Positions 7,669-27,424 of a stretch of DNA of 64,000 nt are shown one piece after another. The notes below the pieces were generated by a model. The model had not been told where the DNA came from, made no database searches, and worked only from the letters and a program-made list of their open reading frames with translations. Source of the DNA: a virus; IMG/VR virus record IMGVR_UViG_3300046758_000611, positions 96,001-160,000 of that record. The stretch is one strand, 5' to 3'. The position numbers and the translations under genes are program-made. Position 1 is the first letter of the stretch. Each line of letters starts with the position of its first letter.

Positions 7669-7705
7669 TATATATAAGTATATTACTTAACATTAAATTT
7701 CAGAA

Positions 7706-8113: not shown

Positions 8114-8164
8114 TATAAAAAAGACTTTTTATAATTTTTATTAAAGAAAAGTAATATTAGTAAA

Positions 8165-8171
8165 TATTTAT
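8165..8171 (+). promoter_or_regulatory. TA(T/C)TTAT putative phage promoter motif (representative copy)
   Basis: The same heptamer lies 4-6 nt upstream of 13 start codons on both strands (listed in findings). Confidence 0.6.
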
Positions 8172-8176
8172 GTATA

Positions 8177-8374
8177 ATGAATGATGCAAACTACAAATTA
8201 ACAACGGTAAAGGTCTTATCGGAGAATTACTCAAACTTCAAAGTTGATACCCTTAATACTGAAATGACATTACAGAAACTTGTAAATCGTGCTATTCACC
8301 TATACTTAAATGACGAAAAGTTTAAAAAGCAAGTAGATGAATCGGCACCAGTAACAAATAATTCAAAGTATTGA
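8177..8374 (+). CDS. small putative ribbon-helix-helix DNA-binding protein
   Basis: LTTVKV strand followed by helices (LQKLVNRAIHLYL). Confidence 0.55.
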   Translation: MNDANYKLTTVKVLSENYSNFKVDTLNTEMTLQKLVNRAIHLYLNDEKFKKQVDESAPVTNNSKY

Positions 8375-8375
8375 G

Positions 8376-8404
8376 TTGACATTGAGGTGGTGATTGCCTA
8401 CATT
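8376..8404 (+). promoter_or_regulatory. sigma70-type promoter
   Basis: TTGACA-17 nt-TACATT, ending 6 nt before GTG 8411. Confidence 0.65.
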
Positions 8405-8410
8405 GGGTAG

Positions 8411-9673: not shown

Positions 9674-9674
9674 T

Positions 9675-10862: not shown

Positions 10863-10898
10863 ACTTTAAGACATAAACTTTTATATACTTATAGATGA

Positions 10899-11609
10899 AT
10901 GGACTACTATAAAGTATATTTAAAAAAATTGGTAGGTGGATTTTTGTCAACTACACCGACACGATTAAAACCTGGACAGATAGTTACCTTCAAATATCGT
11001 GACGATATTCCATCGAGAAGAAAATTAAGTCGCATGATATTGGTTCTATCTAGTCGTCCAGGTAAAAACGGAAAATTGATTCATGGAATATCATTACAAT
11101 TTATACCGTGGCAATTGTTTCGGTCATTTATGCAAAAGGTTATCACATTTGATACACTTTTACTAATTCAAAGAAGACTTGAAATACAAGCACCACTAAA
11201 TGAGTTCCTAGAGAAACCTATTAGTTTTTATAGTTCATATATTAAAAGATACTTAAAAAACTATGATTGTTACAGGACATATAGTTTATCCAAAATAACA
11301 TCACCACGCATATCATGCCTTGATTACTCAACCATGTTTCCAACGGGAAAAAAAGAAGAACGTGCATTGTTAGTAAATCGTAGAGATTCACTTAGTGACA
11401 TTTTAAAAGAACGTGAAGTTATTGAAAAATTATTAAAGTCCGATGAAAAAATTTCAATTGATAACAGAAACGCAAGACGAATGATTATTAAAAGATTCGG
11501 AAGTGTAGAAAATTTCTATGACGCAGTACGCAAACTAGATTCACTGGTTGATGACAATCAGGATGTAGATGATATATACAAAAGCATAAAATCAAATATG
11601 AAAAAATGA
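10899..11609 (+). CDS. hypothetical protein, weakly T4 gp2 (DNA end protector)-like
   Basis: PGQIVTFKY...ILVL...HGISLQFIP...CYRTY pattern recalls gp2-type proteins; weak. Confidence 0.35.
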   Translation: MDYYKVYLKKLVGGFLSTTPTRLKPGQIVTFKYRDDIPSRRKLSRMILVLSSRPGKNGKLIHGISLQFIPWQLFRSFMQKVITFDTLLLIQRRLEIQAPLNEFLEKPISFYSSYIKRYLKNYDCYRTYSLSKITSPRISCLDYSTMFPTGKKEERALLVNRRDSLSDILKEREVIEKLLKSDEKISIDNRNARRMIIKRFGSVENFYDAVRKLDSLVDDNQDVDDIYKSIKSNMKK

Positions 11610-12241
11610 AACCCTCAATTAGTTTTGCCATAACCACACACAATGAATTCATTCAGTTAAAAAAATCTATTGATATTATAGAGAGATTTAAAGATGATTT
11701 GGATGAGTTATTATTTTTAGATGATTTTTCTGACAACGACAAAACATTGAAACTTCTTGAAAGTAGAAACACATTTAAACGTAAATTTGAAAAAGATTAC
11801 TCGGATCATAAGAATTATTTAAATTCATTATGCAATTGTGATTATATTTTACAACTAGACGGTGACGAAATATTAAGTCAAAAACTTATCGCAAATGTTA
11901 AAAATATAATAAAAGATAATTCAGATATAGATTTATTCTATATACCCAGAGCAAACTATGTTCAGGGTATAAATAAGAGTTATCTAAAACGATGGAATTG
12001 GAAAATGGATAATAAAAAAAGAATTAATTATCCTGATTTTCAAGGCAGACTTTTCAAGAATAATGAAAAACTATATTGGCATCGTTCCGTGCATGAAAGA
12101 ATTACGGGAAATAAAAATTTTAGCAAGTTACCATTAGATAACGATCTTGATATTATTCACGAAAAGCATATTCAAAAGCAAATCGCAAACAACAACTTTT
12201 ATTCGGAAAATTACAATCGTGACTGCACAAGAAAACAATAA
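11606..12241 (+). CDS. GT2 glycosyltransferase
   Basis: ISFAITTHNE, LDDFSD, LDGDE, PDFQGRLF and VHERI motifs. Confidence 0.88.
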   Translation: MKPSISFAITTHNEFIQLKKSIDIIERFKDDLDELLFLDDFSDNDKTLKLLESRNTFKRKFEKDYSDHKNYLNSLCNCDYILQLDGDEILSQKLIANVKNIIKDNSDIDLFYIPRANYVQGINKSYLKRWNWKMDNKKRINYPDFQGRLFKNNEKLYWHRSVHERITGNKNFSKLPLDNDLDIIHEKHIQKQIANNNFYSENYNRDCTRKQ

Positions 12242-13892
12242 AAAAAAATTAGGCATAGTAACTTGTTATTTTAATCCACGTAACTATCTAACAAAATTTA
12301 TTAATTTTCTTGATTTCTATTACAAGTTAAGAAAATCAAAAAATGTAGATATTATTGTTGTTGAGTCTTGTATGAGTGATTCTGTTTATACATTAAAAAA
12401 CACTATACATAACAATCTTATATCATTGAATACAAATTCCGTATATTGGCAGAAAGAAGAATTGATAAATATAGGACTTAGAAAACATAAAGACACCGGT
12501 TACAAAAACTTGTGCTGGTTGGATAGTGATATTGAATTTTTAAACGATAATTGGGCAGATGTGATAATAGAAGATCTAAATGAGTATGATATAGTTCAGG
12601 TATTTGAGTATAGTCACGAAATAATTGACACTAAAGCAAACACAATAAAACATAACTCCTATATAAAAAAAATAAAAGAGGGTAACAACCATCCATTTAA
12701 AAGAATCGGTGAACTTGGTTATGGTTATGCTTACAAACGAACATCTCTTACCGATAAACTTTTATATGAAAATGCGGTAGTTGGTGGTGGTGATTTTTTA
12801 AATATATTACCATTTGTAAATATGAATACCACAATGAATATCACAGAAGATAGATATTTTAAAAACGCAAATATAGAAATGATAGATGATTACATGGATT
12901 GGTATGAAGATAAATCTAAATTAAAAACAAGTTACTCAAAAAACGAAATAAAGGTTGCGTACCACGGAGATAGAAAATTCAGAAACTATTTAAAACGAGA
13001 GCAGATTTTAAAAAACTTGAATTTTTGTCCAAAGACTGACCTTGAAAAAACAAATAATAACTCACTTAGACTTCTTAAAAATAAAAATGTAGAGAATTAT
13101 TTGAAAAAATATTTCAAGGAAAGAAATGAGGATTACTTTAATGATAATTTACAATCAAAAAGATTCTTTAAAAAAATAATCAACAGAGTGGCGTACAATT
13201 TAGATGTAGAAAATATTGAAACCGAACCTATGCTACGCACGGTTGAAAAAATAAAAAACCACGAAAATAAAGTACAAAAAAATAATAATATAGATATAAA
13301 ACTAAATAGAGTATGTGTTTGGTCTAAAAATAATATTAAAGAGATAAATGTAAGTTCCTTTGATTTTATGCAAAACATAATATACGATAAATCAGATAGA
13401 CATCAAATAAATTCTATAAAGTGCAATCGTAGTGATAGATTTCCACATACATATTTAAAATTCATTATTAGTAATTACGAAAATCTTCCAAGTGTGGTTA
13501 TATTCTGTAATGATTATATTGAACAATCGTTTATATTAAGTACGATCAGCATACTTAGAAACATACCAAACGATGAAAACTTAAAGTTTACACAAATCAT
13601 AGAGTGCAAACAACCAGTGCGATTGGATACATCTGGTCATATTTTAGGACTTTACAAAAAAACCTCTGTAAAGAAAAGTAAACATACATTCCAAGAATGG
13701 AATCGTTATCATTGTAATAAAGAAAAGGAAGGTAGCGATTTTTATGTTTATCCAATTTTTTATTTAGGAAGAAACATTATACAAAACAAAAAAATAGAAT
13801 ACTACGAAAACCTGTTAAGTAGTATATCGTCAGACTCACTTACCGAAGACGAACTTTATCTAAACCGCAGTTGGGACAACATATTTCAATGA
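12219..13892 (+). CDS. glycosyltransferase-like protein with DUF3431-like C-terminal domain
   Basis: IVTCYFNP, WQKEELINIG, WLDSD and VGGGD motifs; C-terminal HTYLKFIISNYENLP. Start moved to in-frame GTG 12219. Confidence 0.6.
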   Translation: MTAQENNKKKLGIVTCYFNPRNYLTKFINFLDFYYKLRKSKNVDIIVVESCMSDSVYTLKNTIHNNLISLNTNSVYWQKEELINIGLRKHKDTGYKNLCWLDSDIEFLNDNWADVIIEDLNEYDIVQVFEYSHEIIDTKANTIKHNSYIKKIKEGNNHPFKRIGELGYGYAYKRTSLTDKLLYENAVVGGGDFLNILPFVNMNTTMNITEDRYFKNANIEMIDDYMDWYEDKSKLKTSYSKNEIKVAYHGDRKFRNYLKREQILKNLNFCPKTDLEKTNNNSLRLLKNKNVENYLKKYFKERNEDYFNDNLQSKRFFKKIINRVAYNLDVENIETEPMLRTVEKIKNHENKVQKNNNIDIKLNRVCVWSKNNIKEINVSSFDFMQNIIYDKSDRHQINSIKCNRSDRFPHTYLKFIISNYENLPSVVIFCNDYIEQSFILSTISILRNIPNDENLKFTQIIECKQPVRLDTSGHILGLYKKTSVKKSKHTFQEWNRYHCNKEKEGSDFYVYPIFYLGRNIIQNKKIEYYENLLSSISSDSLTEDELYLNRSWDNIFQ

Positions 13893-14746
13893 TTATTTTA
13901 TCAATACATTTATTTCCATTTGAAATGAAACGATTCCAACGAATCGTTAATTCAATAAATTTAAATTTAAAATATACGAGATGTGAAGAACTACTCGTTC
14001 ATGCTACTCTAAATAAAAATTCTAATATTCTTGAACACGAGTATGATGTTGACGAAGTCTTCATCAATCTTATGAAAACTATAAATTGCGATGTATTTTA
14101 TGAAATCAAAAACGAAGTAAATTTTTTAGGAGTAAATGAACATAGACGAAAAACCATACAACTATCAGACAAAGATGATTACATCATTTATATAGATAGT
14201 GATCTTATATTCAACGACAGAATACTAGCAAATCAAATTATTGCAATAGATTATTTAAAAAACAAAAATGACTACTTTATAGTAACCCCAAATACAATTA
14301 GATTGTGGGATAAAACATGGGATATAATTACACATGAAAAGTACCTAACTGAATCATTTGAATTCCACAGAAACGCAAACTTTTACGATATAGTAAATCA
14401 AAACTATGGAAAAATATATCTAGAGAAAATAAACAAATTTAAATGGGGTGGGGGGTGGTTTAATTGTTTTTCAGCAAATCTGCTTAAATTGATAAAAATC
14501 CCAACTTCATTTAAAGGTTATGGGCCAGATGACACATTTGTCATGGAGTGTTGTAATATATTAAAAAAAGAAGGAGAGAACGTATCACAATATATTATGA
14601 AAAACATGATTGTATGTGAGGATATAAAAATTGATTCAAAAAAATATTTCAAGAAAAAAACAAAAAATTTCAGAGAATTGTGCAATAAAAACTTTAATAA
14701 AGAGTTATCAAATTTTTATATTTCTTATAAAAAAGAAATAATTTAA
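13889..14746 (+). CDS. glycosyltransferase-like (GT-A) protein
   Basis: YIDSD DxD motif and GYGPDDTF. Start moved to ATG 13889, which forms an ATGA overlap with the upstream stop. Confidence 0.65.
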   Translation: MIILSIHLFPFEMKRFQRIVNSINLNLKYTRCEELLVHATLNKNSNILEHEYDVDEVFINLMKTINCDVFYEIKNEVNFLGVNEHRRKTIQLSDKDDYIIYIDSDLIFNDRILANQIIAIDYLKNKNDYFIVTPNTIRLWDKTWDIITHEKYLTESFEFHRNANFYDIVNQNYGKIYLEKINKFKWGGGWFNCFSANLLKLIKIPTSFKGYGPDDTFVMECCNILKKEGENVSQYIMKNMIVCEDIKIDSKKYFKKKTKNFRELCNKNFNKELSNFYISYKKEII

Positions 14747-14751
14747 TATAT

Positions 14752-15555
14752 ATGTGTATGAAGAAACGGCAAATTTTAACATTTGTGGTGGTGAGTTTAA
14801 CTTTAACATTTACACAGGGTTGTGTAACAATTCCCTGGGGGTTGAAAGATGACAGAATTAAAATCAATTCTGACATAGAAAAAAAAGACACAGAACTTAG
14901 CCGTCATCTTAAATCTTATGTAACAGGAACTGTTGAAACACTGTCGTATGTAGATAATAAAAACAAAACACAACAAGTTGCATTAAATTTAGCACAAAAG
15001 GCACAAGAAATTGTAGGACTCCCAGACCCAGGGGACAAAATCAATGTAATTGATGTAATAAACAAAAACGGAGTTGCACTTGAGAACCTAGAAGACAGAA
15101 ATGCAGATGTAATAAGTTTATCTAGGCAAAAACAGGTCCTAGGACATGAACTAAGTGACACAGAAGATAAACTCATAGAACTGGGTGAGGCATCGAGAAC
15201 AGAAGATAATTTTTTTGCAAAAGCATGGGGTTGGTTAAAAACTACATTTGGCATATTAGGTGCAATTGCTATATTAATAATTGGAGGTCCTGCAATTTTA
15301 CCTATTTTGGGGCAAATAATTGCGTGGGTAGTTACAAAAATACCAGGACTTGTAGGTTGGATGGGTCTTACGAGTTTTTCGTTAACAAAGAATATTATCA
15401 AGGGAGTGCATGATGCAAAAGAAAAAATAAAAATGGCAGACGAAGAACGGAAGTTTTCAAAGAATGAAGTTCTTGACTTATTTAAATCAAATCTTGGCAA
15501 CTCAACAAACCACTCCGACAAGAATATAATCAGCAGAATAAAAAGAAAGTTCTAA
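14752..15555 (+). CDS. putative membrane lipoprotein
   Basis: KKR, a hydrophobic stretch and TQG-C (lipobox-like), then a coiled-coil middle and a hydrophobic segment FGILGAIAILIIGGPAILPILGQIIAWVV. Confidence 0.55.
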   Translation: MCMKKRQILTFVVVSLTLTFTQGCVTIPWGLKDDRIKINSDIEKKDTELSRHLKSYVTGTVETLSYVDNKNKTQQVALNLAQKAQEIVGLPDPGDKINVIDVINKNGVALENLEDRNADVISLSRQKQVLGHELSDTEDKLIELGEASRTEDNFFAKAWGWLKTTFGILGAIAILIIGGPAILPILGQIIAWVVTKIPGLVGWMGLTSFSLTKNIIKGVHDAKEKIKMADEERKFSKNEVLDLFKSNLGNSTNHSDKNIISRIKRKF

Positions 15556-16181
15556 TGAAAGAAATACTTGTAGAGAATAAAAAATTTAAAGGTGATCCAG
15601 AAAAATTTAAAGGAAGTCGTGACGATAACGCACTTGGGTTCGGCTGGAGGCCTGGTCAGGAAGAAACAACAATAACTATAAATAATTGCGAAATAGATGC
15701 TAACGGAGTAGCAGAGGGTCTTAAATTAAGTTATTGTAAAAATGTAAAAGTTACCAATTGTACAATAATAGGTGGGTACGAAGATTGCGTAGATATTGTG
15801 CGTGGTTCAAATATAGTATTTCATAAATGTAAGTTTATAGCAAATAACACAAAACATCATTTCACAATAAAGTGTAATGTAGATGGTGTTAAAATAATAG
15901 ATTGTGAATTTATAAATGAATTTAATAATATATTAGATGGTGCTTGCGTTGATTTAGGAAACTGGGGAGATTATGATGTGGACATACTTCCCAAAACAAA
16001 GAACATAGAAATTGTAAATTGCAAATTAACAAATTTTAGAAAATTTAAAAAAATCATAACAAGAAGATTATATGCAGAAACACCGTGTGTAAAAAGTGAA
16101 GGGTTTGCACTTAATATTCCAAAAATCTTTGTTTCTTTGTTTTTTTCATATAAAAGGTTTGAAAGTAAACAAAAAAAATAG
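15555..16181 (+). CDS. right-handed beta-helix (pectin-lyase-like) protein
   Basis: Repeating I.NC.I / NVKVTNCTI / NIVFHKCKF / NIEIVNCKL units and EDCVDI. Confidence 0.7.
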   Translation: MKEILVENKKFKGDPEKFKGSRDDNALGFGWRPGQEETTITINNCEIDANGVAEGLKLSYCKNVKVTNCTIIGGYEDCVDIVRGSNIVFHKCKFIANNTKHHFTIKCNVDGVKIIDCEFINEFNNILDGACVDLGNWGDYDVDILPKTKNIEIVNCKLTNFRKFKKIITRRLYAETPCVKSEGFALNIPKIFVSLFFSYKRFESKQKK

Positions 16182-16243
16182 TTTTCTTTATTATACTTAT
16201 AAAAAAGGTTATATCGCATTATTAAACATGGAGATTGCGTTAT

Positions 16244-17119
16244 ATGAAAATAGGAGTTGTGGGAAATGGGTTTGTGGGTCATGCAATGACATTGCTGAGA
16301 CCTTATGTGGATGTACTTGTGTGGGATATAGTTCCAGATAAAAGAGATCCACAAACATTAGATATTGAAACGTTTGTAGAAGAGTCGGAAATAATTTTTG
16401 TTGCCGTTCCCACACCAATGAATTCAGACGGAAGTGCTAATTTAAATATAGTAAGAGCAGTTTGCGAAGAAATTCAAGCAATTGATGATGAAAAATATAT
16501 TGTACTTCGTTCTACTGTACCACCCGGAACAAGTGAAGAATTAGATGTAGCATTTATGCCAGAGTTTCTTACTGAAAAAAACTGGAAGGATGATTTTAAA
16601 AATTGCAATCAATGGATACTTGGTTCAACCGATCCATTCTTATATGAAAAAATGAAAAGAATGTTTGAACTTGCATATAATGATGGAAATGGTGCGATTG
16701 TAAACAAAGAATTAATTCAATGCAAACCAAGTGAAGCAGAAATGATAAAATACTTGAAAAATGTATTTTTAAGTGTAAAGGTCGGTTTCTTTAATGAACT
16801 TGAATCAATTTGCTCAGAGATGGACATTAATTATGAAAATGTTCGTTGTATTGCAACAGAAGACCCTAGAATTGGAAACGGACACACAAAAGTTCCCGGA
16901 CACGATGGTCTTCGTGGATTTGGGGGAACGTGTTTTCCAAAAGATACGAATGCACTTGCAAACTTTGCAAATGAAAATTTCGTACCAACTCCTATACTTA
17001 ATGCAGTTATTAAACGAAACGAAGAAGTAGACAGACCTGAAAAAGACTGGATGGCAGACAAAGGGAGAGCAGTTTCTGCTGAAGTAAATCCCAACGAAAA
17101 GAAGAAAAAGACAACATGA
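16244..17119 (+). CDS. UDP-glucose/GDP-mannose dehydrogenase family protein (short form)
   Basis: GVVGNGFVG Rossmann motif, AVPTP, RSTVPPGT, PEFL, EMIKY and catalytic GFGGTCFPKD. Lacks the C-terminal UDP-binding domain. Confidence 0.9.
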   Translation: MKIGVVGNGFVGHAMTLLRPYVDVLVWDIVPDKRDPQTLDIETFVEESEIIFVAVPTPMNSDGSANLNIVRAVCEEIQAIDDEKYIVLRSTVPPGTSEELDVAFMPEFLTEKNWKDDFKNCNQWILGSTDPFLYEKMKRMFELAYNDGNGAIVNKELIQCKPSEAEMIKYLKNVFLSVKVGFFNELESICSEMDINYENVRCIATEDPRIGNGHTKVPGHDGLRGFGGTCFPKDTNALANFANENFVPTPILNAVIKRNEEVDRPEKDWMADKGRAVSAEVNPNEKKKKTT

Positions 17120-18072
17120 AAAACATTGACTTCTTCAATGGAGATGCAGACGGAATAATAAGTCTACATCAGTACCGATTATTCTCACCGACTGATAGTG
17201 AATTATTTACTGGTGTTAAAAGGGATGTTAAACTTTTAAGACATTGCGTTGGGGTTAAAAACTGCAACTTAACGGTATTTGATGTATCACTATTATCTAA
17301 CATAGAATATGTAAAACAAATATTAAAAAAGAAAAATAAAATAAAATGGTTTGACCATCATGAACCGGGTGAAACAAAGTTAGGAAAAAACTTTTCAATA
17401 AAAGTAGACTCCGATCCCAATTGTTGTACAAATATATTAGTTGATAAATACATAGACGGGTTACACAGACCCTGGACAATATGTGGTGCGTTTGGAGATA
17501 ATTTACACGAACAGGCAGAAAAACTAAATCCTTGTTTTGACGAGCAGACAATGAATAAGTTAAAAGAAATTGGAGAAACACTAAATTACAATGGATACGG
17601 AAACAAAGAGTCTGATTTAACTGTACACCCAAAAAACGTATACCTTGATTTAAAACAATATGAATCACCGTTTCGTTACAGAAGCAAATCAGAAATATAC
17701 AATAAAATTTATACACAAATGAAGTCTGATGAAAAAGAACTAAATTCATCCGAAATTTTACATGAAACAAAAACAGGGAAAGTCATTTTGCTTCCAGACA
17801 CAAAAGCATCCATTAGGTACTCTGGTATATACAGTAACCAACAAACAACCGATAATCCCGATAAAGCATTTGCAATTCTTACATTAACAAACAATGATAA
17901 TTACCGAATAAGCATAAGGTCACCAAAAAACAATCCATACGGAGCAAGCAAGTTGGCATTGAGTTTTCCAACAGGAGGTGGTCGTGAAAAAGCAGCCGGT
18001 ATAAACGAATTACCAAAAACAGAACTTAAAAAATTTATTGAAACATTTGAAAATATTTATGGAAATGAATAA
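17116..18072 (+). CDS. DHH-family phosphoesterase
   Basis: NGDADG, FDVS, FDHH, SIRS and GGGR..AAG (DHHA1) motifs. Confidence 0.85.
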   Translation: MKNIDFFNGDADGIISLHQYRLFSPTDSELFTGVKRDVKLLRHCVGVKNCNLTVFDVSLLSNIEYVKQILKKKNKIKWFDHHEPGETKLGKNFSIKVDSDPNCCTNILVDKYIDGLHRPWTICGAFGDNLHEQAEKLNPCFDEQTMNKLKEIGETLNYNGYGNKESDLTVHPKNVYLDLKQYESPFRYRSKSEIYNKIYTQMKSDEKELNSSEILHETKTGKVILLPDTKASIRYSGIYSNQQTTDNPDKAFAILTLTNNDNYRISIRSPKNNPYGASKLALSFPTGGGREKAAGINELPKTELKKFIETFENIYGNE

Positions 18073-18196
18073 ACAAAAAAAAGTATTTATTAAAACAAAA
18101 AAACCTAGTATAATATTCCTTAATAAATCAATAAATTATAAACAACCAACACAAACTGAAATATCTAAACAAGATTTAGCGGATAGGTGGGGATAG
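18065..18196 (+). CDS. small hypothetical protein (43 aa)
   Basis: Below the ORF-track cutoff; fills the gap between two coupled genes (MNKQKKVF...DLADRWG). Confidence 0.35.
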   Translation: MNKQKKVFIKTKKPSIIFLNKSINYKQPTQTEISKQDLADRWG

Positions 18197-18199
18197 ATT

Positions 18200-18571
18200 A
18201 TGAGAAATCAAGATGAAAGTATAAGACCTTGGGGAAATTATGAAATTCTATTAGACGCAGAATACTGCAAAGTCAAACGTATCTTTGTAAAACCAGGACA
18301 AAGATTAAGTTATCAATACCACCACAAACGACAAGAAGCATGGACGGTTGTTAGTGGTGTTGCGAGAATAACTTTAGACGATGTCACAGAAGATTATAAA
18401 CCAGGAGAAACGGTTTTAATTCCTATTGGAGCAAAACACCGCATGGCAAATCCAAGTGGTACAGAAGATATGATTTTAATTGAAGTTCAAACAGGAACTT
18501 ATTTTGGTGAAGATGATATTGTCAGAGTCCAAGATGATTATGATCGTCCAGAAAAACACGAATCAAATTAA
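18200..18571 (+). CDS. mannose-6-phosphate isomerase type II C-terminal cupin
   Basis: RPWG.Y, LSYQYHHKRQE.W, HR..N, IEVQTG.YFGEDDIVR..DDY motifs. Confidence 0.9.
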   Translation: MRNQDESIRPWGNYEILLDAEYCKVKRIFVKPGQRLSYQYHHKRQEAWTVVSGVARITLDDVTEDYKPGETVLIPIGAKHRMANPSGTEDMILIEVQTGTYFGEDDIVRVQDDYDRPEKHESN

Positions 18572-18575
18572 AATT

Positions 18576-18983
18576 ATGAAAACCGTAGCAGTTAGTGGAT
18601 ACTTTGACCCAATTCATGTGGGTCATTTAGAATATCTTGAGTTGGCAAAAAAACTTGGTGATCGTCTTGTTGTTATTGTAAACAACAATCATCAATGTGT
18701 TCTTAAAAAAGGCAAACCATTTATGGATGAAGCAGACCGAGTAAAAATCGTAGAAGCACTCGGAATAGTTGATGAAGTTTTTCTCAGTATCGATGGAGAC
18801 AAAAGTGTATGTGCTTCTCTTGATGCAATTAAACCCGACATCTTTGCAAATGGTGGAGATAGAAGCACAGGTGAAGTACCCGAAAGTGTTATTTGCAAAA
18901 AGCATGGCATTGAAATGGTCGATGGACTTGGTGATAAAATTAGAAGTTCAAGTGATTTGACTGGCTTAAAAGAAAAGAAGTAG
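18576..18983 (+). CDS. cytidylyltransferase-like nucleotidyltransferase (HxGH family)
   Basis: SGYFDPIHVGH, KKGKPFM, FANGGDR and KIRSSS motifs. Start moved to ATG 18576. Confidence 0.88.
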   Translation: MKTVAVSGYFDPIHVGHLEYLELAKKLGDRLVVIVNNNHQCVLKKGKPFMDEADRVKIVEALGIVDEVFLSIDGDKSVCASLDAIKPDIFANGGDRSTGEVPESVICKKHGIEMVDGLGDKIRSSSDLTGLKEKK

Positions 18984-19002
18984 TTCCTATCTATTTATTT
19001 GT

Positions 19003-19908
19003 ATGAATAAAGTCTTGATAACGGGTGGTGCTGGTTTTGTTGGAACTGCACTTATACGCAAACTTATACGAAAGTACAAGAATATTCAGATCATCAGCAT
19101 TGACAATTATAGTAGTGGATTTGAAAGCAATCATATAAAAAGTAAAAAAGTAACGTATCTTAATAAGGATACTCAAACTTTGATTCCGAAAAAATTTGAT
19201 GCAAACAATACCAAGATGGATATTGCAGATGCCTTCGAACCAGATGTTGTCTTTCACTTCGGTGAGTTCTCACGAATCGTAACGAGTTTTGATGCGTTTG
19301 ATAATTGTTGGGACTATAATATGCAAGGAACTAAAATGGTTCTTGATTATTGCGTAGCAAAAAAGGCAAAGTTAATTTATAGTGCAAGTTCAAGTAAATT
19401 TGGAAACGATGGCAAAGACGAAAATCTTTCTCCATATGCTTGGATGAAAGCAAAAATGGTTGAACTTATTAAAAACTATTCAGACTGGTTTGATTTAAAA
19501 TACGAAATAACATACTTTTACAATGCGTACGGTCCTGGACAAGTAAGAACAGGAGATTACGCAACCGTGATAGGAATATTCGAAGAGCAATATTCCAAAG
19601 GAGAACCACTTACAGTTGTAGAACCAGGTGAACAATCAAGAGACTTTACCCATGTTGATGATATCGTAAATGGAGTTGTGTTAGCAGCCGTCAAAGGTCA
19701 ACAATGTGAATATCCACTTGGAACAGGAATTCCACACAAAATAATTGATGTTGCTAAACTGTTCAATCATAAACATATTATGATACCAGAAAGACGTGGT
19801 GAGAGATTCTACGGAAAAGCAATTCCATCTCTAACCTACCAACATCTTGGTTGGAACGCAAAAATTAAACTAGAAGATTATATCAAAAAAATAGTTGACG
19901 CCAAATAA
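19003..19908 (+). CDS. NAD-dependent nucleotide-sugar epimerase/dehydratase
   Basis: TGGAGFVG, YSASSS, SPYAWMK (YxxxK), FYNAYGP and RDFTHVDD motifs. Confidence 0.92.
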   Translation: MNKVLITGGAGFVGTALIRKLIRKYKNIQIISIDNYSSGFESNHIKSKKVTYLNKDTQTLIPKKFDANNTKMDIADAFEPDVVFHFGEFSRIVTSFDAFDNCWDYNMQGTKMVLDYCVAKKAKLIYSASSSKFGNDGKDENLSPYAWMKAKMVELIKNYSDWFDLKYEITYFYNAYGPGQVRTGDYATVIGIFEEQYSKGEPLTVVEPGEQSRDFTHVDDIVNGVVLAAVKGQQCEYPLGTGIPHKIIDVAKLFNHKHIMIPERRGERFYGKAIPSLTYQHLGWNAKIKLEDYIKKIVDAK

Positions 19909-19923
19909 ATTTGTTTATATAAT
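19895..19923 (+). promoter_or_regulatory. sigma70-type promoter of the putative modification operon
   Basis: TTGACG-17 nt-TATAAT, ending 6 nt before ATG 19930. Confidence 0.8.
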
Positions 19924-19929
19924 ATATAG

Positions 19930-21216
19930 ATGAATTTTAGAAATGTTGAACTTGAATATCCTAAGCCGTTTCACAACGGAAAGAAGTGGGTCTATGCGGA
20001 TAGTCCAATTTACGACAACTTATTAAATTGCTTTTGGGAAACACAACATCCAGAAGACTCATATAAAGATTCACCTAGATTACGTGATCCGTTTAGAAAA
20101 ATAAACAATATGACGAATCAGAAACTTCTTGGTCATAAAGAAGATACATACGAAAAAGTTGATTGGGTGGAAGATGAAAATGGAATTATTCGTGCTTGTA
20201 TTTTATATTTTGATATTCCAAAAATGCACTCTAAGAAAAAGAAAATAGTAAGTTTTACAGGTCGTGAAATTACTTTAAGTGCAAATGATGCGTATATTCA
20301 AGAAGTTGCTTGCTATCCTGGTTACGAAGAATGGTTAGGTAAACTAATTAAAAAGCACGAAGCAAAAGGAAACTTCTTTGAAGAAGGAGTTACAGTCATT
20401 GAATGTGATATGCAACTCAAAAGAATTCGTGAACTTCTTGCATCTATTGGTTATACACGAAAAGATAATCTTATCAGCAGTTTCGCAGATATGTATGGAT
20501 TTTGGTTTAAAGGTGGTGAATACCCACACATAGATCCTGCACAAGAAATTGCCTTACAAAGATTAGCAATGCCGGGTGTTCCAAATCCTAAGAAAATCAT
20601 GGAACAATTAAATAAAGTAAGTTCCGAGTTTTCTAATCATTATTCAAATTACAATAAAAGTGATTCGTGGTCAGGAGTAACAGTATCTGGTTATGGAGGC
20701 GAATGGGATTTTATTATCAAACCAAGTGAAATGAACAACAAGTGGAAAAAGAATAATTCAGAGAAATTAAAATGGAAAGTAGAAGATACTCCACTTCGTG
20801 CAAAACTACCTGCCGTAGAAGAATATTTAAAACTTCTTCCTTATGAATTTGAAAGAATTAGAATTCTTAAACTTGCTGGTGGTGAGGGAGAGTTACAACG
20901 ACACACAGACCGTCAAGACAAAGAAGCAGGTATTTCGGACAACCAATGGGCAAGAGTTCATTTTCCAATTCAAACAAATCCAAAAGTACAATTCACACTT
21001 TGGAACACAGACGGAACAAAAACGGTTGACAAAATGAAAGAAGGAGAATTGTGGTATCTTGATATGAGGAAACCACATACTGCATTTAATGGTGGATCAC
21101 AGGATCGTTATCATCTGGTTGTTGATTTAAAAGCAAATCAAAACTTTAGAGATTGGTTGGTTGAAAGTAGCAAGTTGTATCCACCCACCAAAGATGCTGA
21201 CAATTATATTGAATGA
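19930..21216 (+). CDS. GNAT-like domain fused to an Asp/Asn beta-hydroxylase-type 2OG-Fe(II) oxygenase
   Basis: C-terminal RIRILKL...RHTD (HxD)...RVHFPIQTNP...GELWYLD..KPHT..N...RYHLVVD. The N-terminal AYIQEVACYPGY...LASIGY pattern is GNAT-like (weaker). Confidence 0.75.
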   Translation: MNFRNVELEYPKPFHNGKKWVYADSPIYDNLLNCFWETQHPEDSYKDSPRLRDPFRKINNMTNQKLLGHKEDTYEKVDWVEDENGIIRACILYFDIPKMHSKKKKIVSFTGREITLSANDAYIQEVACYPGYEEWLGKLIKKHEAKGNFFEEGVTVIECDMQLKRIRELLASIGYTRKDNLISSFADMYGFWFKGGEYPHIDPAQEIALQRLAMPGVPNPKKIMEQLNKVSSEFSNHYSNYNKSDSWSGVTVSGYGGEWDFIIKPSEMNNKWKKNNSEKLKWKVEDTPLRAKLPAVEEYLKLLPYEFERIRILKLAGGEGELQRHTDRQDKEAGISDNQWARVHFPIQTNPKVQFTLWNTDGTKTVDKMKEGELWYLDMRKPHTAFNGGSQDRYHLVVDLKANQNFRDWLVESSKLYPPTKDADNYIE

Positions 21217-21683
21217 AAATTTCAGAAGAACGACTGCAAACTATGTATGAGTTAGCAGGTTTAAATAAACAAACTCTACATGATGCTCTTCGTATCATGG
21301 GAAAAAAGCATCTTAAAACAAAGTTGATGAAAGAAGGATGGACACACGACAATCCAACTAAAAACTATTGTTATGTAATTGCAGAATTTGTTTATTATTA
21401 TTTATCACCAAGAGGGTCTAAACCATATAAGTTACCTGGCATACCAGGAGACGATGGATTGCATCGTTTTATTATGTGGCCAGATTATTCTGTTGTGGAT
21501 TTGGCAGTTGACCAATTTCCTAATTTTGAAGATGTAGATTATACAAAAGCAAAAATATGCTATTTTATGGTAAATACATTCGGAGTACCTGGACCATCAA
21601 AACGAACAAGAATTTTAGCAGAACTCATGGGATATGAGTTATCAGAAGAACGAGCAATTAAAGTAAATACAAAATCATGGTAA
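21213..21683 (+). CDS. putative papain/transglutaminase-like Cys-His-Asp protein
   Basis: NPTKNYCYVIAE (Cys at a helix start)...LHRFI (His)...VVDLAVDQF (Asp). Confidence 0.5.
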   Translation: MKISEERLQTMYELAGLNKQTLHDALRIMGKKHLKTKLMKEGWTHDNPTKNYCYVIAEFVYYYLSPRGSKPYKLPGIPGDDGLHRFIMWPDYSVVDLAVDQFPNFEDVDYTKAKICYFMVNTFGVPGPSKRTRILAELMGYELSEERAIKVNTKSW

Positions 21684-22504
21684 TGTTATCAAAATTTATA
21701 GAATCAGTATACGAAGACAACACAGGTAATATGTGGAGTGAAGATCAATTGTTAAATTTGGTTAAAGATTGGGAAGACCCAAATCCAAAACCTATTATTA
21801 TGAACTACGAAGGAATTGATGTGGTTAGAGATGATCTTCTAAATCACGGTAGTAAAATTCGTTTCGTAGATAAACTTATTCGTGAAACTTCTGCAAAAGA
21901 AATTGTATTTGGGTGTTGCCCTGCAACAGGTTATGCACAAATATCTTTACCAGCAGTTGCACAGAAATACAACAAAAAAGTTGTATTGTTTATGGCAAAA
22001 CGCAATCCAGAAAACTATCATGAATATCAAAAAAGAGGAATGGACTTGGGTGCTATATACGAGTGGGTAAATATGGGAATGTTATCAGTTACAAAATCAA
22101 GAGCAAAAAAATATGTAGCAGAGGACCCAGAAAATAGAATGGAATTTCCAATCGGATTAGAACACCCAACGGTTGTAGCAAGTATTATTAAAGTTGCAAG
22201 AAATGCTTTATCCGAAAATCCACCAAGTGAAATTTGGAGTGTTGGATCAAGTGGAACAATTAGTCGTGGTTTACAACTTGCTTTTCCTGAGATACCTGTT
22301 AATGTAGTATCTGTTGGACACAAAATGAACGAAAGAGAAATAGGACGAGCAAAATATTACAGATCAGAATATCAGTTTGATAAGGCAATAAAGGAAAATG
22401 AAATGCCACCATTTCCATCTGCCCCAACATATGATGCCAAAGCATGGAAGTTTGTAAAAGAACACGCAAAAGAAGGTGCTTTGTTTTGGAATGTAGGTGC
22501 ATAA
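21677..22504 (+). CDS. PLP-dependent enzyme, fold type II (ACC deaminase-like; resembles phage base-hypermodification PLP enzymes)
   Basis: VVRDDLL..GSKIR (Schiff-base Lys), SVGSSGT phosphate loop, PTYDAKAW and LFWNVG. Alternative start at 21683. Confidence 0.85.
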   Translation: MVMLSKFIESVYEDNTGNMWSEDQLLNLVKDWEDPNPKPIIMNYEGIDVVRDDLLNHGSKIRFVDKLIRETSAKEIVFGCCPATGYAQISLPAVAQKYNKKVVLFMAKRNPENYHEYQKRGMDLGAIYEWVNMGMLSVTKSRAKKYVAEDPENRMEFPIGLEHPTVVASIIKVARNALSENPPSEIWSVGSSGTISRGLQLAFPEIPVNVVSVGHKMNEREIGRAKYYRSEYQFDKAIKENEMPPFPSAPTYDAKAWKFVKEHAKEGALFWNVGA

Positions 22505-22505
22505 T

Positions 22506-24095
22506 ATGAAAAAATACTTTTATGAAAAAAACAATCTTGCGGAATGTAGAGTCAATATAACATTCCACGAACTTCTTCAAAAGAATGGAAAAGAATTAGA
22601 AGAGTGGATTGATGAACTTAGAAACTATATTGTTGAAACTTGGGATAACGAAGGTCTTCCTCCGAGAACTGGTAAAAACGAAAAAGACATCATAGCAAAT
22701 TTAAATAAGTTATCAGGATATAATGTATATAAGTTTCAACACACAGACGAAATGGACGGAACAAATACCATCATTAAAAACTTTAATAAGTTCGCAACTG
22801 TGGTTGATCAGTTTTTTCCAACGATGCTTAAAACTAAAATAGGTTCTAGTAAGCATACATCTTGGAGTGTATATGATTGCTTTGCTAATCCAGAGAAACG
22901 AGAAAGTTTCCACACTTGTATGAGAAGAACGGTCCGACGAGATTCATTTTATGCTCACGGAAGAACAATCAAGAAAAATGATTATGATGTTCCGTGTCCA
23001 ACTGAAAACGCAGAAGAGTGGGTTCGTAATTTTGTCAAAGAGAAACATCTACATCCATATAACGACTTTTGGATTATTGAGTTGTTTACAGAAAAAAAGT
23101 TTGATTCATATGAAGCAAGCAGTTTAATGTTAACGGCAAAGCAAATCAAGAAATTATACAAAGAAGGTTTGCTTAAATTAAACAACATTAGAAATTTAGA
23201 AAGAACTGCAAACTTCGGTGACGATATAGAAAATATAAATGATGTAATTATCGAAGACGAAAAAGAAGTACAATTCAAATTCAGTATTCGTTACTACAAC
23301 AAGAACTCAAGAATCTTTCCGTCAGCAATGGAAGCATTTAAACTTGGTCTTAGTCAACCAGCAGTAAACTTTCCTCCGTTGACTGCAAAGTATATTTATC
23401 AGACGTACACAGATCACATTCAAGATAAAAGCAATCTTCATATATATGATCCAAGTGCAGGTTGGGGTGGACGTATTCTAGGTGCTATGTCAGTACACGA
23501 TAGACAAATTCATTATATAGGAACTGATCCAAACACAGACAATTATATAGATGAACTAAATCAAAGTCGTTATGAATATCTTGCCGACTTCTTTAATGAC
23601 AAAACAAACGGAGGTAATCCGTTCTTTGGTCATCGTAACACTTACGATGTTTATCAGAATGGAAGTGAAGAAATTCACAAGAATCCGAGTTTTCAAAAAT
23701 ACAAAGGTAAACTTGATTTGGTTTTTACAAGTCCACCATATTTTAATCGTGAACAATATTCAGCAGATGAATCTCAGAGTTTCAAAAAGTTTCCAGAGTA
23801 TGAAGATTGGAGAGACAACTTTCTTCGTCCTACTTTGAAGACGGCTGCCGAGTATTTGAAGAACGATAGATATCTACTTTGGAATATCGCAGACATCGCA
23901 GACGGAGACGGATTTATGCCATTAGAAAAAGATAGTCGTGATATTCTTGCGGAATATGGACTTGAGTATGTTGAAACTCTTAAAATGCTTATGACAACAA
24001 TGCGTGGTGTTAAAGCAGAAACGGTTAAGAATTGTTGCAAGATAAACGGAGAGTTGCAAAAGTATGAACCTATCTTTGTGTTTTACAAGAAGTAA
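22506..24095 (+). CDS. DNA amino (N4C/N6A) methyltransferase-like protein with large N-terminal region
   Basis: YDPSAGWGGR (motif I), YIGTDPN, FTSPPYF (motif IV) and WNIAD. Confidence 0.8.
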   Translation: MKKYFYEKNNLAECRVNITFHELLQKNGKELEEWIDELRNYIVETWDNEGLPPRTGKNEKDIIANLNKLSGYNVYKFQHTDEMDGTNTIIKNFNKFATVVDQFFPTMLKTKIGSSKHTSWSVYDCFANPEKRESFHTCMRRTVRRDSFYAHGRTIKKNDYDVPCPTENAEEWVRNFVKEKHLHPYNDFWIIELFTEKKFDSYEASSLMLTAKQIKKLYKEGLLKLNNIRNLERTANFGDDIENINDVIIEDEKEVQFKFSIRYYNKNSRIFPSAMEAFKLGLSQPAVNFPPLTAKYIYQTYTDHIQDKSNLHIYDPSAGWGGRILGAMSVHDRQIHYIGTDPNTDNYIDELNQSRYEYLADFFNDKTNGGNPFFGHRNTYDVYQNGSEEIHKNPSFQKYKGKLDLVFTSPPYFNREQYSADESQSFKKFPEYEDWRDNFLRPTLKTAAEYLKNDRYLLWNIADIADGDGFMPLEKDSRDILAEYGLEYVETLKMLMTTMRGVKAETVKNCCKINGELQKYEPIFVFYKK

Positions 24096-25841
24096 TTAAA
24101 TAGAACTTGAAAAATCTACTCGGTCTACATCAACTCCGAAAAATTTCATAAGTAGTCTAATTGCTTTTTTACCTTGTGCTACTATAAAGTCAAATGCAGC
24201 GGATATAGCATCTGACACCCATTTCCATGCTTTTTTCAAAACTTCCATAGTTGAATCTTTAAGTTTCTTGAATCCACCTTTTACGTTATCGACACCCTTT
24301 TTTAATAAATCAGTTGCATCACTAAAAAAACCTTCACACATCAATAACCTAAGAGAGTTAAACAATTCCATTTCATTTAGATTTTGGAAATTTTCATTTA
24401 ATACTTTATTTCCACCATCCACTTTATTAAATGCTTCTTTCATGATTGTAGAAAACGTTGGTATATATTTTACTCCATCCTTTTCCTCGGCAAGTCGGTT
24501 CACGGCAGACTCAGCTGCTTTCTTTGCAGTATCAGCTGCTTTCATAATATTACCACGCAGAGCAATATATGGAGTTGATCCAGAACCTGTTTTAAACGAA
24601 GCATAAAAGTGACACTTTGATGTCAAATCACTTAATCCTGCTTCGATATCAAAATACTTAGTAACTTTACCAGAGGGAGGATCAAATTCTACAATCGTAT
24701 CAGCACGTGAATCAGATGCAGTACCGAACTTAACATCACCCGAAGCAGCCTCAAACACAAATGCTTCTTTTAATTTAGGATTACTACTAAACTCTTGATT
24801 CAGATTCAACGTAATTACATTTCCTGCCTGTGTTGCATCTTCAACATCTTTTATTTGGTTTTGCATATCTTCAAGTTCTTTTAAAGCTTGTGGTGATCCA
24901 TCGTCTTTTAGTTTTTTTACTTTATCTTTGAATGCATCAATCGTTCCTTTATATCCTGATTTGCTTGTATCAAGCACCCCCGTTTTCAAAGTATTAAAAA
25001 CTTTTTTTAGTTCTGAACTTTCGTTTTCCCCAAATTTTTGGAAAGCAACCTCAAGTGTAGCAAATGCTTCAATTCTTTTGGCACTCATAATTTGAGAACC
25101 ACCTTTCTTTTTCAATGAAATTCGTTGACCACGATCACCCTTAACATCAGTTTTGGGAGTTTTACTTGGTTTATCTTTTTTACCTGCATCTGTGAATATT
25201 TTTGACCACTCGGAACTAACAGGAGCACCCCCCTTTCCACCTCCAATTTGTTGTAAAGCTCCTATTCCCTCTTTAAGAAATGCGTCTGCGAGGTTATTTG
25301 CCTGATCTCTAAGACCAGCCGAACCCCAAAATCCTTTATCGTTAATGCGTTTCCATTCATCTGCATATTCACCACTTGATAAATCTGCATTTTTGTTTTT
25401 CTTAAACGCAAGAGCAACTGCAATCATTGCTTCCCAATCTTCACCAGAAGGTTTCTTTGCACCCTTTACGGTTGACAGATCATTGAATGCTTTTCCTATG
25501 TATGCAGGAACTACACCGAACAGTTGATTTATCTTTCCTTTTTTATTACCCCAATCAACCAGATCATCTTTGTTGTTTGCTTTTAAAAGTTCTGCTTTCA
25601 TTTGTTTCCACAACTTTTTATCTTTAATCTTTAACTTTTTGTTTTTGTTATCTCTAAGATCATTTGAATCTACTTTTGAAATAAACATTTTCTTGTTATC
25701 TCTATGAGAATCAATAGTAAACAGAGTTGCCAATCCACCAAGACCACCATTTTTATCAGATGCTTCGTTTAGTAACTCGGCAAAATCTGTCGGAATCTCA
25801 ACCAAAGATGAATTCTTTATATAATGCTCTATAATGTCCAC
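24096..25841 (-). CDS. hypothetical protein with a restriction-endonuclease-like motif; possibly virion-internal
   Basis: GEDWE...TPKTD...RISLKK resembles an E...PD-(D/E)xK variant. LNE sites occur near both ends, and TATTTAT lies 4 nt upstream of the GTG. Confidence 0.45.
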   Translation of the reverse strand: MDIIEHYIKNSSLVEIPTDFAELLNEASDKNGGLGGLATLFTIDSHRDNKKMFISKVDSNDLRDNKNKKLKIKDKKLWKQMKAELLKANNKDDLVDWGNKKGKINQLFGVVPAYIGKAFNDLSTVKGAKKPSGEDWEAMIAVALAFKKNKNADLSSGEYADEWKRINDKGFWGSAGLRDQANNLADAFLKEGIGALQQIGGGKGGAPVSSEWSKIFTDAGKKDKPSKTPKTDVKGDRGQRISLKKKGGSQIMSAKRIEAFATLEVAFQKFGENESSELKKVFNTLKTGVLDTSKSGYKGTIDAFKDKVKKLKDDGSPQALKELEDMQNQIKDVEDATQAGNVITLNLNQEFSSNPKLKEAFVFEAASGDVKFGTASDSRADTIVEFDPPSGKVTKYFDIEAGLSDLTSKCHFYASFKTGSGSTPYIALRGNIMKAADTAKKAAESAVNRLAEEKDGVKYIPTFSTIMKEAFNKVDGGNKVLNENFQNLNEMELFNSLRLLMCEGFFSDATDLLKKGVDNVKGGFKKLKDSTMEVLKKAWKWVSDAISAAFDFIVAQGKKAIRLLMKFFGVDVDRVDFSSSI

Positions 25842-25867
25842 GACAATAAATATATATCAAAGTAGAT

Positions 25868-27424
25868 TTATTGTATTCTTTCGGGATAATCTGTAAATAC
25901 ACCATTTACACCCAACTCACGCAAATATCTAATAGCACGAAGTTCATTCACGGTATATACATATATTTTCATGTTATTTTCATTACAATACTCAACGATG
26001 GGTGGTGTAATATCTTCTATATACAAATTTACAGAATATATATTTTTTTCAAAGTAGTCTTTCTTAAAATTCTTTATGTCTCTCAGTATGACATTATCTT
26101 CGTGAAATAATTGGGACACATTAATATCGGAATCACTTCGTCTTATCAAATTGACGGTTGCACAACTAAACGAACTTAATACAATATCAACATTCCTCCA
26201 TTGTTTCTTTTTTTGATAATCTCTAACAATAGCAACAATATTAGTTGCAATGCTACTATCCTTAACTTCAATATTAACACCACACCTTCCATCTATGCAA
26301 TCCAATGCTTGTTGCAAAGTGGGAATTCTTTCACAATTAGCATAAATTAATTTATCAAATTCATGTGATTCCAAATCACTCATTTTTTTATCTACACCAA
26401 ACATTCTATTTGCATTGTAATCGTGAAATACACACATTTTCCTATCAATATATTGAACATCAAATTCAATCATATCACAATTATATTCAATTGCTTTTTC
26501 AAACGCAGAAAGTGTATTTTCAGTGCAAGTGCCACTTGCCCCACGATGAGCAATATTAACAAACTTATACTCTTCTATTTCCGAAAAAAATTGTTTTATT
26601 TTACAAAACACACTACATTCTAACCCCTTGTCATAAATTGTAAGATGTGTATTTAATTTTGTTGTATATAATTTTTTGTATGTTGATGCAATCTTTTTGA
26701 AAGCACGAACACCACTACTATAAAAGACAGTAGGATCATTATATTCTTGTATTTGAAACACAGGACACAGAATTCTATCTAATATAGTTTTAGAAACATT
26801 AGACATTTTACGAAGTTCATTTGTTGCGGACAAATTAATTAGTGGTTGATTTAGTTCAGGCATCTCACTATGATTCGTAATACACTCAAGCATTATTTTT
26901 TGTAGATTAAATTTCTTACAAATTTTATTGTAAATCATGACACCTGGTAAAAGTTTATTGAATACATTTTTAACCCCAAACGGGCAATTAATTAAAACCA
27001 TACCCGCAAATCTTACATCTTTTAAAGTAGACACATAAGCACCCACACAACCACCAAGTGAAAATCCTATAAAGTAAACTTTATCACACTCATTAGAAAC
27101 TTTTTCATATTTACTTTTTACGTCATCTACCCAATCATTCCAAGTCACTTTTGTAATATTATCAGAATCGTATCCGTGACCACGCAATTCAACAAGATGA
27201 GTATCCCATCCGAAATTTTCAAAAACAAAATCACTAAGAGGGACCATTTGTTCGTGCTTTGATAAAAAACCATGACACAAAATAACCCCAACTTTTTGAG
27301 TTGAGGTTTTTTTGACCTTCTTTGATGAAATGCTTTTTTGCATTTCATTTTCCATGCACATATTGTTGTGTTTGCAACTTATTGGATATTTACATTCTTT
27401 TTTTGTGCATTTTTGTGATTCCAT
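25868..27424 (-). CDS. alpha/beta-hydrolase (esterase/lipase) fused to glycerophosphodiester phosphodiesterase
   Basis: N-terminal half: CHGF, LRGHG, GFSLGG, DPTV, late His. C-terminal half: IAHRGASG..ENTL.AF, IEFDV, FHD, NIEVK, VYTVN, GVFTDYP. Confidence 0.9.
   Translation of the reverse strand: MESQKCTKKECKYPISCKHNNMCMENEMQKSISSKKVKKTSTQKVGVILCHGFLSKHEQMVPLSDFVFENFGWDTHLVELRGHGYDSDNITKVTWNDWVDDVKSKYEKVSNECDKVYFIGFSLGGCVGAYVSTLKDVRFAGMVLINCPFGVKNVFNKLLPGVMIYNKICKKFNLQKIMLECITNHSEMPELNQPLINLSATNELRKMSNVSKTILDRILCPVFQIQEYNDPTVFYSSGVRAFKKIASTYKKLYTTKLNTHLTIYDKGLECSVFCKIKQFFSEIEEYKFVNIAHRGASGTCTENTLSAFEKAIEYNCDMIEFDVQYIDRKMCVFHDYNANRMFGVDKKMSDLESHEFDKLIYANCERIPTLQQALDCIDGRCGVNIEVKDSSIATNIVAIVRDYQKKKQWRNVDIVLSSFSCATVNLIRRSDSDINVSQLFHEDNVILRDIKNFKKDYFEKNIYSVNLYIEDITPPIVEYCNENNMKIYVYTVNELRAIRYLRELGVNGVFTDYPERIQ

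Follow-up and report, generated by a model that had tools for sequence, protein, structure and literature searches.

To our knowledge, the amino-acid-derived DNA hypermodifications known so far all start from 5-hydroxymethyl pyrimidines. The thymidine modification clusters of Pseudomonas phage M6, Salmonella phage ViI and phage PaMx11 work post-replicatively and combine a core installing enzyme with variable tailoring enzymes (Lee et al., NAR 2021, PMC8989533). In vitro, two pyridoxal 5'-phosphate (PLP) enzymes, M6 gp52 and ViI gp226, remove the carboxyl group from amino-acid:thymine conjugates in DNA (PMC8989533). Here we describe a locus of four genes, named A to D, in a 64,000-nucleotide stretch of viral DNA (positions 96,001 to 160,000 of IMG/VR record IMGVR_UViG_3300046758_000611). 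This whole stretch is hereafter called the window, and coordinates refer to it unless a contig is named. The genes encode a 2-oxoglutarate (2OG)/Fe(II) oxygenase (A), a small YunG-like protein (B), a PLP enzyme related to gp52 (C) and a protein with the fold of S-adenosylmethionine (SAM)-dependent methyltransferases (D). We propose that they form a module for post-replicative hypermodification of DNA bases, yielding a product larger than a methyl group on the DNA, and we put the probability of this reading at roughly 0.55.

The four genes run in one direction and abut or overlap in the list of open reading frames (ORFs) of the window, as a first-pass annotation of this DNA had described them. 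Genes A and B share 4 nt and genes B and C share 7 nt, while C and D either overlap by 8 nt or, with D starting at 22506, are separated by 1 nt. Gene C (21677 to 22504, plus strand) encodes a 275-residue fold-type II PLP enzyme of the M6 gp52 family (PHROG 7093, E = 6.7e-40). The AlphaFold2 (AF2) model of C has a predicted local distance difference test score (pLDDT) of 91, and its top Foldseek match is 1j0a (E = 1.5e-10, TM score 0.75), a homolog of 1-aminocyclopropane-1-carboxylate (ACC) deaminase, followed by D-cysteine desulfhydrase, TrpB and threonine deaminase. A PDB sequence search with C alone gave nothing significant. Across 46 diverse relatives the Schiff-base lysine K60 (motif GSKIR) never changes, and in gp52 it corresponds to the lysine of SKIR; the GSSGT phosphate loop is conserved and G193 is invariant. 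The C family counts 1072 representative clusters with E-values of 0.001 or better. A family profile compared with gp52 of Pseudomonas phage M6 aligned with it over the full length (hhalign 98.9%, E = 3.6e-17, 225 columns). The C family and gp52 also have a common C-terminal signature, PFP..P.YD.KAW...FWN.G, and gp52 is itself a strong full-length member of PHROG 7093 (2e-159). Modelling and structure comparison thus bore out the fold-type II assignment made in the first-pass annotation, and the hhalign comparison bore out the proposed kinship to the M6 and ViI enzymes.

The same annotation had recognised neither a 5-hydroxymethyluracil (5-hmU) kinase nor an amino acid:DNA transferase in the window, and their absence extends to the whole record (170 kb, 33% GC, 84% complete by CheckV). 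No match was found in this record to PF00303 (thymidylate synthase homolog/deoxyuridine monophosphate (dUMP) hydroxymethylase), to PF12851 (TET/JBP) or to the 5-hydroxymethyl-2'-deoxyuridine (5-hmdU) DNA kinase family PF18748, and searches of it with M6 gp51, gp54 and gp55 (tblastn, phmmer) gave nothing. For the amino acid:DNA transferase family PF18724, the record holds only a sub-threshold match (14 bits, E = 0.002) at 12756 to 12989. This match lies in a 581-residue ORF (12147 to 13892, plus strand) to which Pfam assigns only a weak DUF3431 match, and at 14 bits it was taken as chance.

In place of these partners stands a SAM-dependent amino-methyltransferase fold, as had been suggested. 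Gene D (22497 to 24095, plus strand) encodes 532 residues when read from a GTG codon; relatives begin at MKKYFYEK, so the ATG at 22506 is the likelier start. Residues ~290 to 532, the C-terminal ~240 residues, adopt a class I SAM-methyltransferase fold according to AF2 (pLDDT 82) and Foldseek, and the 290-residue N-terminal domain gave no match. The motifs YDPSAGWGGR and FTSPPYF are unchanged across 19 relatives, and NFPPLTAKY, GTDPN and GSE are further invariant motifs. The match of D to PF01555 reaches 23.0 bits, below the cut-off of 26.7, and covers profile positions 2 to 59 only. Some relatives bear a PF01555 annotation. D also matches PHROG 12517 and PHROG 498; by sequence, its matches are with DNA methylases (families PF01555 and Eco57I) and with PHROGs of DNA methyltransferases. 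A PDB search with the D profile gave nothing significant. TSPPY is a motif typical of N4-cytosine enzymes, and a relative of D in a Vibrio phage is annotated as being of that type. The family is large, with more than 2300 listed relatives, and a scan of IMG/VR with D retrieved at least 576 viral stretches. The catalytic motifs that had been called intact in A to D are all invariant in the alignments of relatives.

In comparison with the M6, ViI and PaMx11 clusters, the locus shares their core-plus-tailoring logic and their PLP family; it differs in its entry chemistry, its probable target base and two of its partner families. In both cases a PLP enzyme of the C family is present, and in the thymidine pathways, as proposed here, an amino-acid-like group is attached to the base and then trimmed. 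Unlike those phages, the genome examined here is without a dUMP hydroxymethylase, a 5-hmdU DNA kinase or an amino acid:DNA transferase, and its installing enzyme would be a SAM-methyltransferase-fold protein with a TSPPY motif. For this reason the target is probably an exocyclic amine of cytosine or adenine and not the C5-methyl group of thymine. The thymidine pathways, in turn, are without the Asp/Asn-hydroxylase-type oxygenase and the YunG-like protein, both of which are present here.

The association of the four genes was surveyed in 80 IMG/VR viral loci retrieved through C. Genes A and D are adjacent almost always in these loci, and at least three different gene orders occur among the relatives: 35 loci have the order ACD, 11 have DABC, 10 have ABCD or ABCDD, 10 have AC and 8 have CD. 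C stands alone in only 4 of the 80, and many incomplete sets lie at contig ends. T4-like contigs make up about half of the C loci, and there the module comes after gp47/gp46, within the replication block. The association is one-sided: D nearly always accompanies C, while C is often missing beside D.

Gene fusions tie the families together more closely. Among the best 150 C-family representatives, 30 are fusions, comprising 18 D-C or C-D proteins, 9 B-C or C-B proteins, 2 D-A-C proteins and 1 A-B-C protein; B is fused to C in 10 of these 150. According to Pfam, N6_N4_Mtase, Asp_Arg_Hydrox and PALP domains occur in single chains in P0309 and P0323, and P0310 joins Asp_Arg_Hydrox and YunG domains, followed by a PLP domain, in one chain. 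In Erythrobacter phages ZS04 and R6L, a single protein of 812 residues unites ParB, methylase and PLP domains; in the ZS04 chain, N6_N4_Mtase covers residues 332 to 370, PALP 416 to 573 (Pfam) and PHROG 12517 634 to 792. The ParB, methylase and PLP genes are consecutive in Microcystis phage Mae-JY30, and in mycobacteriophage Vincenzo a ParB-methylase gene is followed by a PLP 'carboxylate deaminase' gene. All four of these reduced versions adjoin terminase genes, and ZS04, R6L and Vincenzo are complete phage genomes with a minimal D plus C system and without A. The linkage is thus conserved in relatives and not a matter of chance. Conserved synteny, shuffled orders and multi-domain fusions support the view of the first-pass annotation that the genes act as one unit linked with DNA modification.

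Two further observations were made on loci of the D family. Some close relatives (contigs L011 to L013, L102, L103 and L107) carry two tandem D genes (D at ~8000 to 11170 of the contigs) that are 69-70% identical, which suggests two sequence or base specificities feeding one cassette. The T4-like contig L116 has D and no C; directly 5' of its D are four genes (5076 to 9551 of that contig) for an arginine-deiminase/amidinotransferase-superfamily protein, a dTDP-sugar-isomerase-type cupin, a sulfotransferase-like protein and a small 2OG oxygenase. These may be a third tailoring set, or mere neighbouring auxiliary genes.

What is new here is an allelic series in front of D. Three alleles were found directly upstream of the same D in near-identical backbones, whose flanks (the epimerase gene upstream and the genes for a 581-residue protein, at 24096 to 25841, and a lipase-GDPD protein downstream) are 88-99% identical to those of the window. 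The first, A-B-C, is that of the window and of contig L108. The second, present in L104, L106, L107 and L110, consists of genes for an AsnB-type amidotransferase, a 2-hydroxyacid dehydrogenase, a divergent A (A') and a divergent C (C', which matches the C profile at 99.1% in hhalign). In the third, in L105, there is no cassette and the epimerase gene ends 49 nt before D. Across the alleles with another cassette or none, D is 88-97% identical, and some alleles have a second D in tandem. Both cassettes are composed of amino-acid/carboxylate-tailoring enzymes. Since three alleles stand before the same D, D is the conserved core of the locus, and A, B and C make up an optional, exchangeable tailoring cassette. 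This arrangement is like that of the thymidine pathways, in which the installing enzyme is constant and the tailoring enzymes vary. With A-B-C, the second cassette and no cassette on one backbone, the series amounts to a ready-made natural experiment.

Gene A (19930 to 21216, plus strand) encodes a protein of 428 residues whose C-terminal half belongs to the Asp/Asn beta-hydroxylase family of 2OG/Fe(II) oxygenases. The assignment is based on an above-threshold match to PF05118 (E = 1.1e-9, 38.8 bits against a cut-off of 22.6, residues 232 to 401) together with the HxD...H iron triad and the 2OG-binding arginine. The residues concerned, H325, D327, H383 and R393, are unchanged in all 21 relatives aligned, gp4 of mycobacteriophage LilMcDreamy included. 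The N-terminal domain is kept within the A family and gave nothing significant against Pfam families or solved structures. A profile of 17 such domains reached an E-value no better than 1.2 in the PDB, Acetyltransf_8 was matched weakly by one of the 17 (E = 0.066), and the Atlas leads were below 0.9. The earlier label of GCN5-related N-acetyltransferase (GNAT) for this half of A is therefore unsupported, and with it the acylation step that had been proposed loses its basis.

A second, independent tie of the module to DNA hypermodification comes through A. In LilMcDreamy, the A homolog gp4 adjoins gp3, which is an amino acid:DNA transferase (PF18724, E = 2.7e-12); gp3 had also been considered as a relative of C, and this was rejected on testing. 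The two genes belong to a group (L007, 1 to 3759 of that contig) made up of gp1 (ParB), gp2 (a DpdA-like transglycosylase), gp3 and gp4, directly before the terminase genes. This group looks like a separate, undescribed hypermodification cluster.

Gene B (21213 to 21683, plus strand) encodes a small YunG-like protein of 156 residues in which C53, H84 and D96 are unchanged in all relatives aligned. Its match to PF24585 (YunG) is weak (E = 0.014, 16 bits, with a cut-off of 27), and the B-containing fusion relative P0310 scores 24 bits against YunG. By Atlas features, B lies at 0.96-0.97 to viral clusters bearing YunG. B is thus a putative member of the YunG group, with a weak link by sequence and a clear one by Atlas features. 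Of its earlier description as papain-like, the invariant Cys/His/Asp order stands; the name has no other basis, the family match being to YunG.

Several other systems can be set beside the module. Transfer of the 3-amino-3-carboxypropyl (acp) arm of SAM is carried out in RNA by TYW2/Taw2 and Tsr3, and in muraymycin biosynthesis by Mur24/Mur23. In such precedents a methyltransferase-fold or PLP enzyme moves the amino-acid arm of SAM to a nucleophile, and a PLP decarboxylase leaves an aminopropyl group. These enzymes are alike to the module in the proposed chemistry only, as their substrates are RNA or small molecules; we know of no example of SAM-arm transfer to DNA. CmoX of Synechococcus phage S-B43 is a C5-cytosine methyltransferase homolog that uses carboxy-SAM and makes carboxymethylcytosine (PMC12783734). 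Like the activity proposed here, it is a case of a phage DNA-methyltransferase homolog transferring a non-methyl group from a SAM derivative, with a product that is a handle for further hypermodification. Unlike D, it is of the C5-cytosine type, depends on carboxy-SAM and has other partners, and it is compared with D here by its description. Closer relatives of the module occur in ParB-methylase loci at phage terminase genes, for which a role in phage DNA modification around packaging has been predicted (Iyer et al. 2013, NAR 41:7635, as cited in PMC4738411). Erythrobacter, Microcystis and Mycobacterium phages have relatives of D and C at such loci, as ParB-fused methylases beside terminase genes, whereas the D described here is without ParB, has its own 290-residue N-terminal domain and has no terminase gene nearby. 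In the full-text literature searched, no phage module of methylase, PLP enzyme and Asp/Asn hydroxylase is described; an earlier mention of the PLP partner in Iyer et al. 2013, which is represented here by its citation, is possible.

Taken together, these features can be arranged into a pathway. That DNA is the substrate is an inference, and so are the target base, the sequence in which the steps occur and the use of the SAM arm. The DNA context is provided by the relatives of D and C that are fused to ParB beside terminase genes and by the position of the T4-like module in the replication block. D, with its SAM-binding amino-methyltransferase fold, would be the core enzyme and engage an exocyclic amine of a DNA base, for which the TSPPY motif makes cytosine N4 a first guess. 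A, B and C would act on whatever D installs. C is expected to remove or rearrange the alpha-carboxyl/alpha-amino end of an amino-acid-like side chain on DNA, like M6 gp52; A would hydroxylate the side chain, and B, with its Cys-His-Asp residues and its frequent fusion to C, may assist. Since D plus C systems exist without A, B or an amino acid:DNA transferase, the 3-amino-3-carboxypropyl arm of SAM is the most economical source of the side chain. We therefore suggest, tentatively, that in phages with D and C it is this arm, and not a methyl group, that D hangs on the exocyclic amine, alone or jointly with C, and that the cassette converts it to an aminopropyl or hydroxy-aminopropyl group. The predicted product would be an N-(3-aminopropyl)- or hydroxy-aminopropyl-type base. 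D could transfer the arm directly and C then decarboxylate it; C could carry out a PLP-dependent gamma-replacement on SAM held by D; or C could make decarboxylated SAM, from which D would transfer the aminopropyl group. The alternative cassette might turn the arm into an amide or a hydroxy-acid side chain. SAM-arm chemistry in particular remains a doubtful part of the proposal.

A number of observations weigh against hypermodification. The matches listed include 43 loci with a full-length D (~48-50% identity, N-terminal domain included) that extend more than 3 kb to either side; in 29 of them, no C or A gene lies within 8 kb. In two CheckV-complete genomes with D, C is found nowhere in the genome, and in a third record C lies ~22 kb away from D. 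The cassette-less allele has a D that is 91% identical to that of the window. The window itself encodes a paralog of D (32637 to 33857, plus strand, 406 residues), 8.5 kb downstream and with no adjacent PLP gene, which keeps the SAGWG, DPNT, FTSPPYFN and NIAD motifs, matches PF01555 weakly and is 33% identical to D over the methyltransferase core (BLASTP, E = 4e-29); it is partnerless in this same genome, and could share the cassette in trans. As D stands alone in complete phage genomes, it may simply methylate. It has an ordinary methyltransferase core that often works alone, and plain methylation is what this fold does by default. In the structure comparison, D comes closest to the archaeal tRNA m2G10 methyltransferase Trm11 (aTrm11). 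C is only ~25% identical to gp52, and the type of reaction can shift in fold-type II enzymes. A complex prediction with D (residues 270 to 532) and C scored 0.00; it gave no verdict and is evidence neither way.

Other explanations were weighed in the light of these points. If D were an N4-cytosine/N6-adenine methyltransferase, A could oxidise its N-methyl product to an N-hydroxymethyl or iminium group, and C, with B, could couple an amino acid to it and decarboxylate the conjugate. The canonical core of D and its occurrence alone in many phages would suit this sequence of events, as would the fact that what the two cassette alleles have in common is an A-type gene paired with a C-type gene. 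The logic also mirrors that of methyltransferase plus TET and of 5-hmU pathways (PMC8256090, PMC8989533). The thymidine pathways run in parallel fashion from methyl through hydroxymethyl to aminoethyl. We consider it unlikely, however, in view of the D plus C systems without an A homolog, which include complete cultured phage genomes and D-C fusions. Moreover, A is of the Asp/Asn beta-hydroxylase family and not an AlkB or TET-like N- or C-methyl oxidase, and no coupling enzyme is evident in A-C-D loci. A simpler possibility is that D plainly methylates DNA while C, with A and B, handles small molecules of the SAM cycle, so that no new base is made or only the cofactor is altered; C could, for example, clear S-adenosylhomocysteine (SAH) or convert SAM by decarboxylation or elimination. 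The core of D is indeed the same whether partners are present or not; SAM and SAH, being alpha-amino acids, could be handled by a fold-type II PLP enzyme; and in ZS04 the methyltransferase match is split in two by the PLP domain, so that PLP would sit by the bound cofactor. Yet side chains carried on DNA are the substrates of the only C-family members to have been tested (PMC8989533), LilMcDreamy has an A homolog beside an amino acid:DNA transferase, and the AsnB and 2-hydroxyacid dehydrogenase genes of the second cassette are hard to see as cofactor housekeeping, which makes this role improbable too.

A substrate other than DNA, either RNA (such as the phage's own tRNAs, with acp- or methyl-type modifications) or protein, would agree with the structural match of D to Trm11 and with the presence of at least 8 tRNAs in the genome. 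Asp/Asn beta-hydroxylases classically act on proteins, so the family of A would also point in this direction. The sequence matches of D to the DNA methylase families and DNA-methyltransferase PHROGs argue against it, as do its ParB-fused relatives at terminase loci, the place of the module in the T4-type replication block and the action of C relatives on DNA, and we regard such a substrate as quite improbable. Least probable of all is that the genes are unrelated auxiliary metabolic genes which happen to share a variable insertion site. The site is certainly variable, with three alleles in near-identical backbones, and it adjoins an island of nucleotide-sugar and glycosyltransferase genes; this explanation is nonetheless contradicted by multi-domain fusions joining all four families and by a co-occurrence that holds across very different phage types and gene orders.

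Immediately 5' of gene A lies a promoter-like site, TTGACG-17-TATAAT (19895 to 19923, plus strand), which matches at 11 of 12 positions and is the top-scoring sigma-70-like site in the 10.5 kb from 15500 to 26000. It is a plausible candidate for the single consensus promoter that the first-pass annotation had placed there. The site is present as claimed; its role as promoter is unproven, since the region holds 50 such sites against 43 +/- 7 in shuffled sequences, that is, no excess, and the -10 hexamer stops 6 nt ahead of the ATG of gene A. The record also encodes PolB and three further N6/N4-type methylase genes, and a DNA search of the 6-kb region against cultured phages gave zero matches.

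Upstream of A extends a long co-directional glycan-building island (8411 to 19908, plus strand). It encodes GT1/GT4 and GT2 glycosyltransferases, a beta-helix protein, a UDP-glucose dehydrogenase-like protein, a DHH-like protein, a mannose-6-phosphate isomerase cupin, a cytidylyltransferase and an NAD-dependent epimerase. The nucleotide-sugar genes were considered as part of the module and rejected, as they are missing from the D-A-B-C and T4-like loci. Tail-to-tail with D is the gene for a 581-residue protein without a family match (24096 to 25841, minus strand). It is hypervariable, with 31-99% identity among contigs whose flanks are ~90% identical or more. Further downstream, between 49005 and 62190, the window encodes Hsp70 (838 bits), DnaJ, a ClpP-like protease, an Hsp90-like ATPase-domain protein and two tandem glutamate dehydrogenases. 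This load of chaperone and nitrogen-metabolism genes is unusual for a phage.

The absence of the 5-hmU route, together with the SAM-binding amino-methyltransferase fold found in its place, suggests that bulky DNA base modification has a second entry, different in its chemistry. A methylase-linked cassette in this large marine phage would probably mean an undescribed base decoration that is larger than methyl, and the module is abundant, many of its members being found in ocean T4-like phages. If the proposed use of the SAM arm is true, it would be the first acp-type modification of DNA, with interchangeable tailoring cassettes widespread in ocean T4-like phages. Should the chemistry prove new, it would affect the sequencing and assembly of marine viromes and add enzymes for site-specific functionalisation of DNA, and it would bear on how these phages evade restriction and CRISPR.

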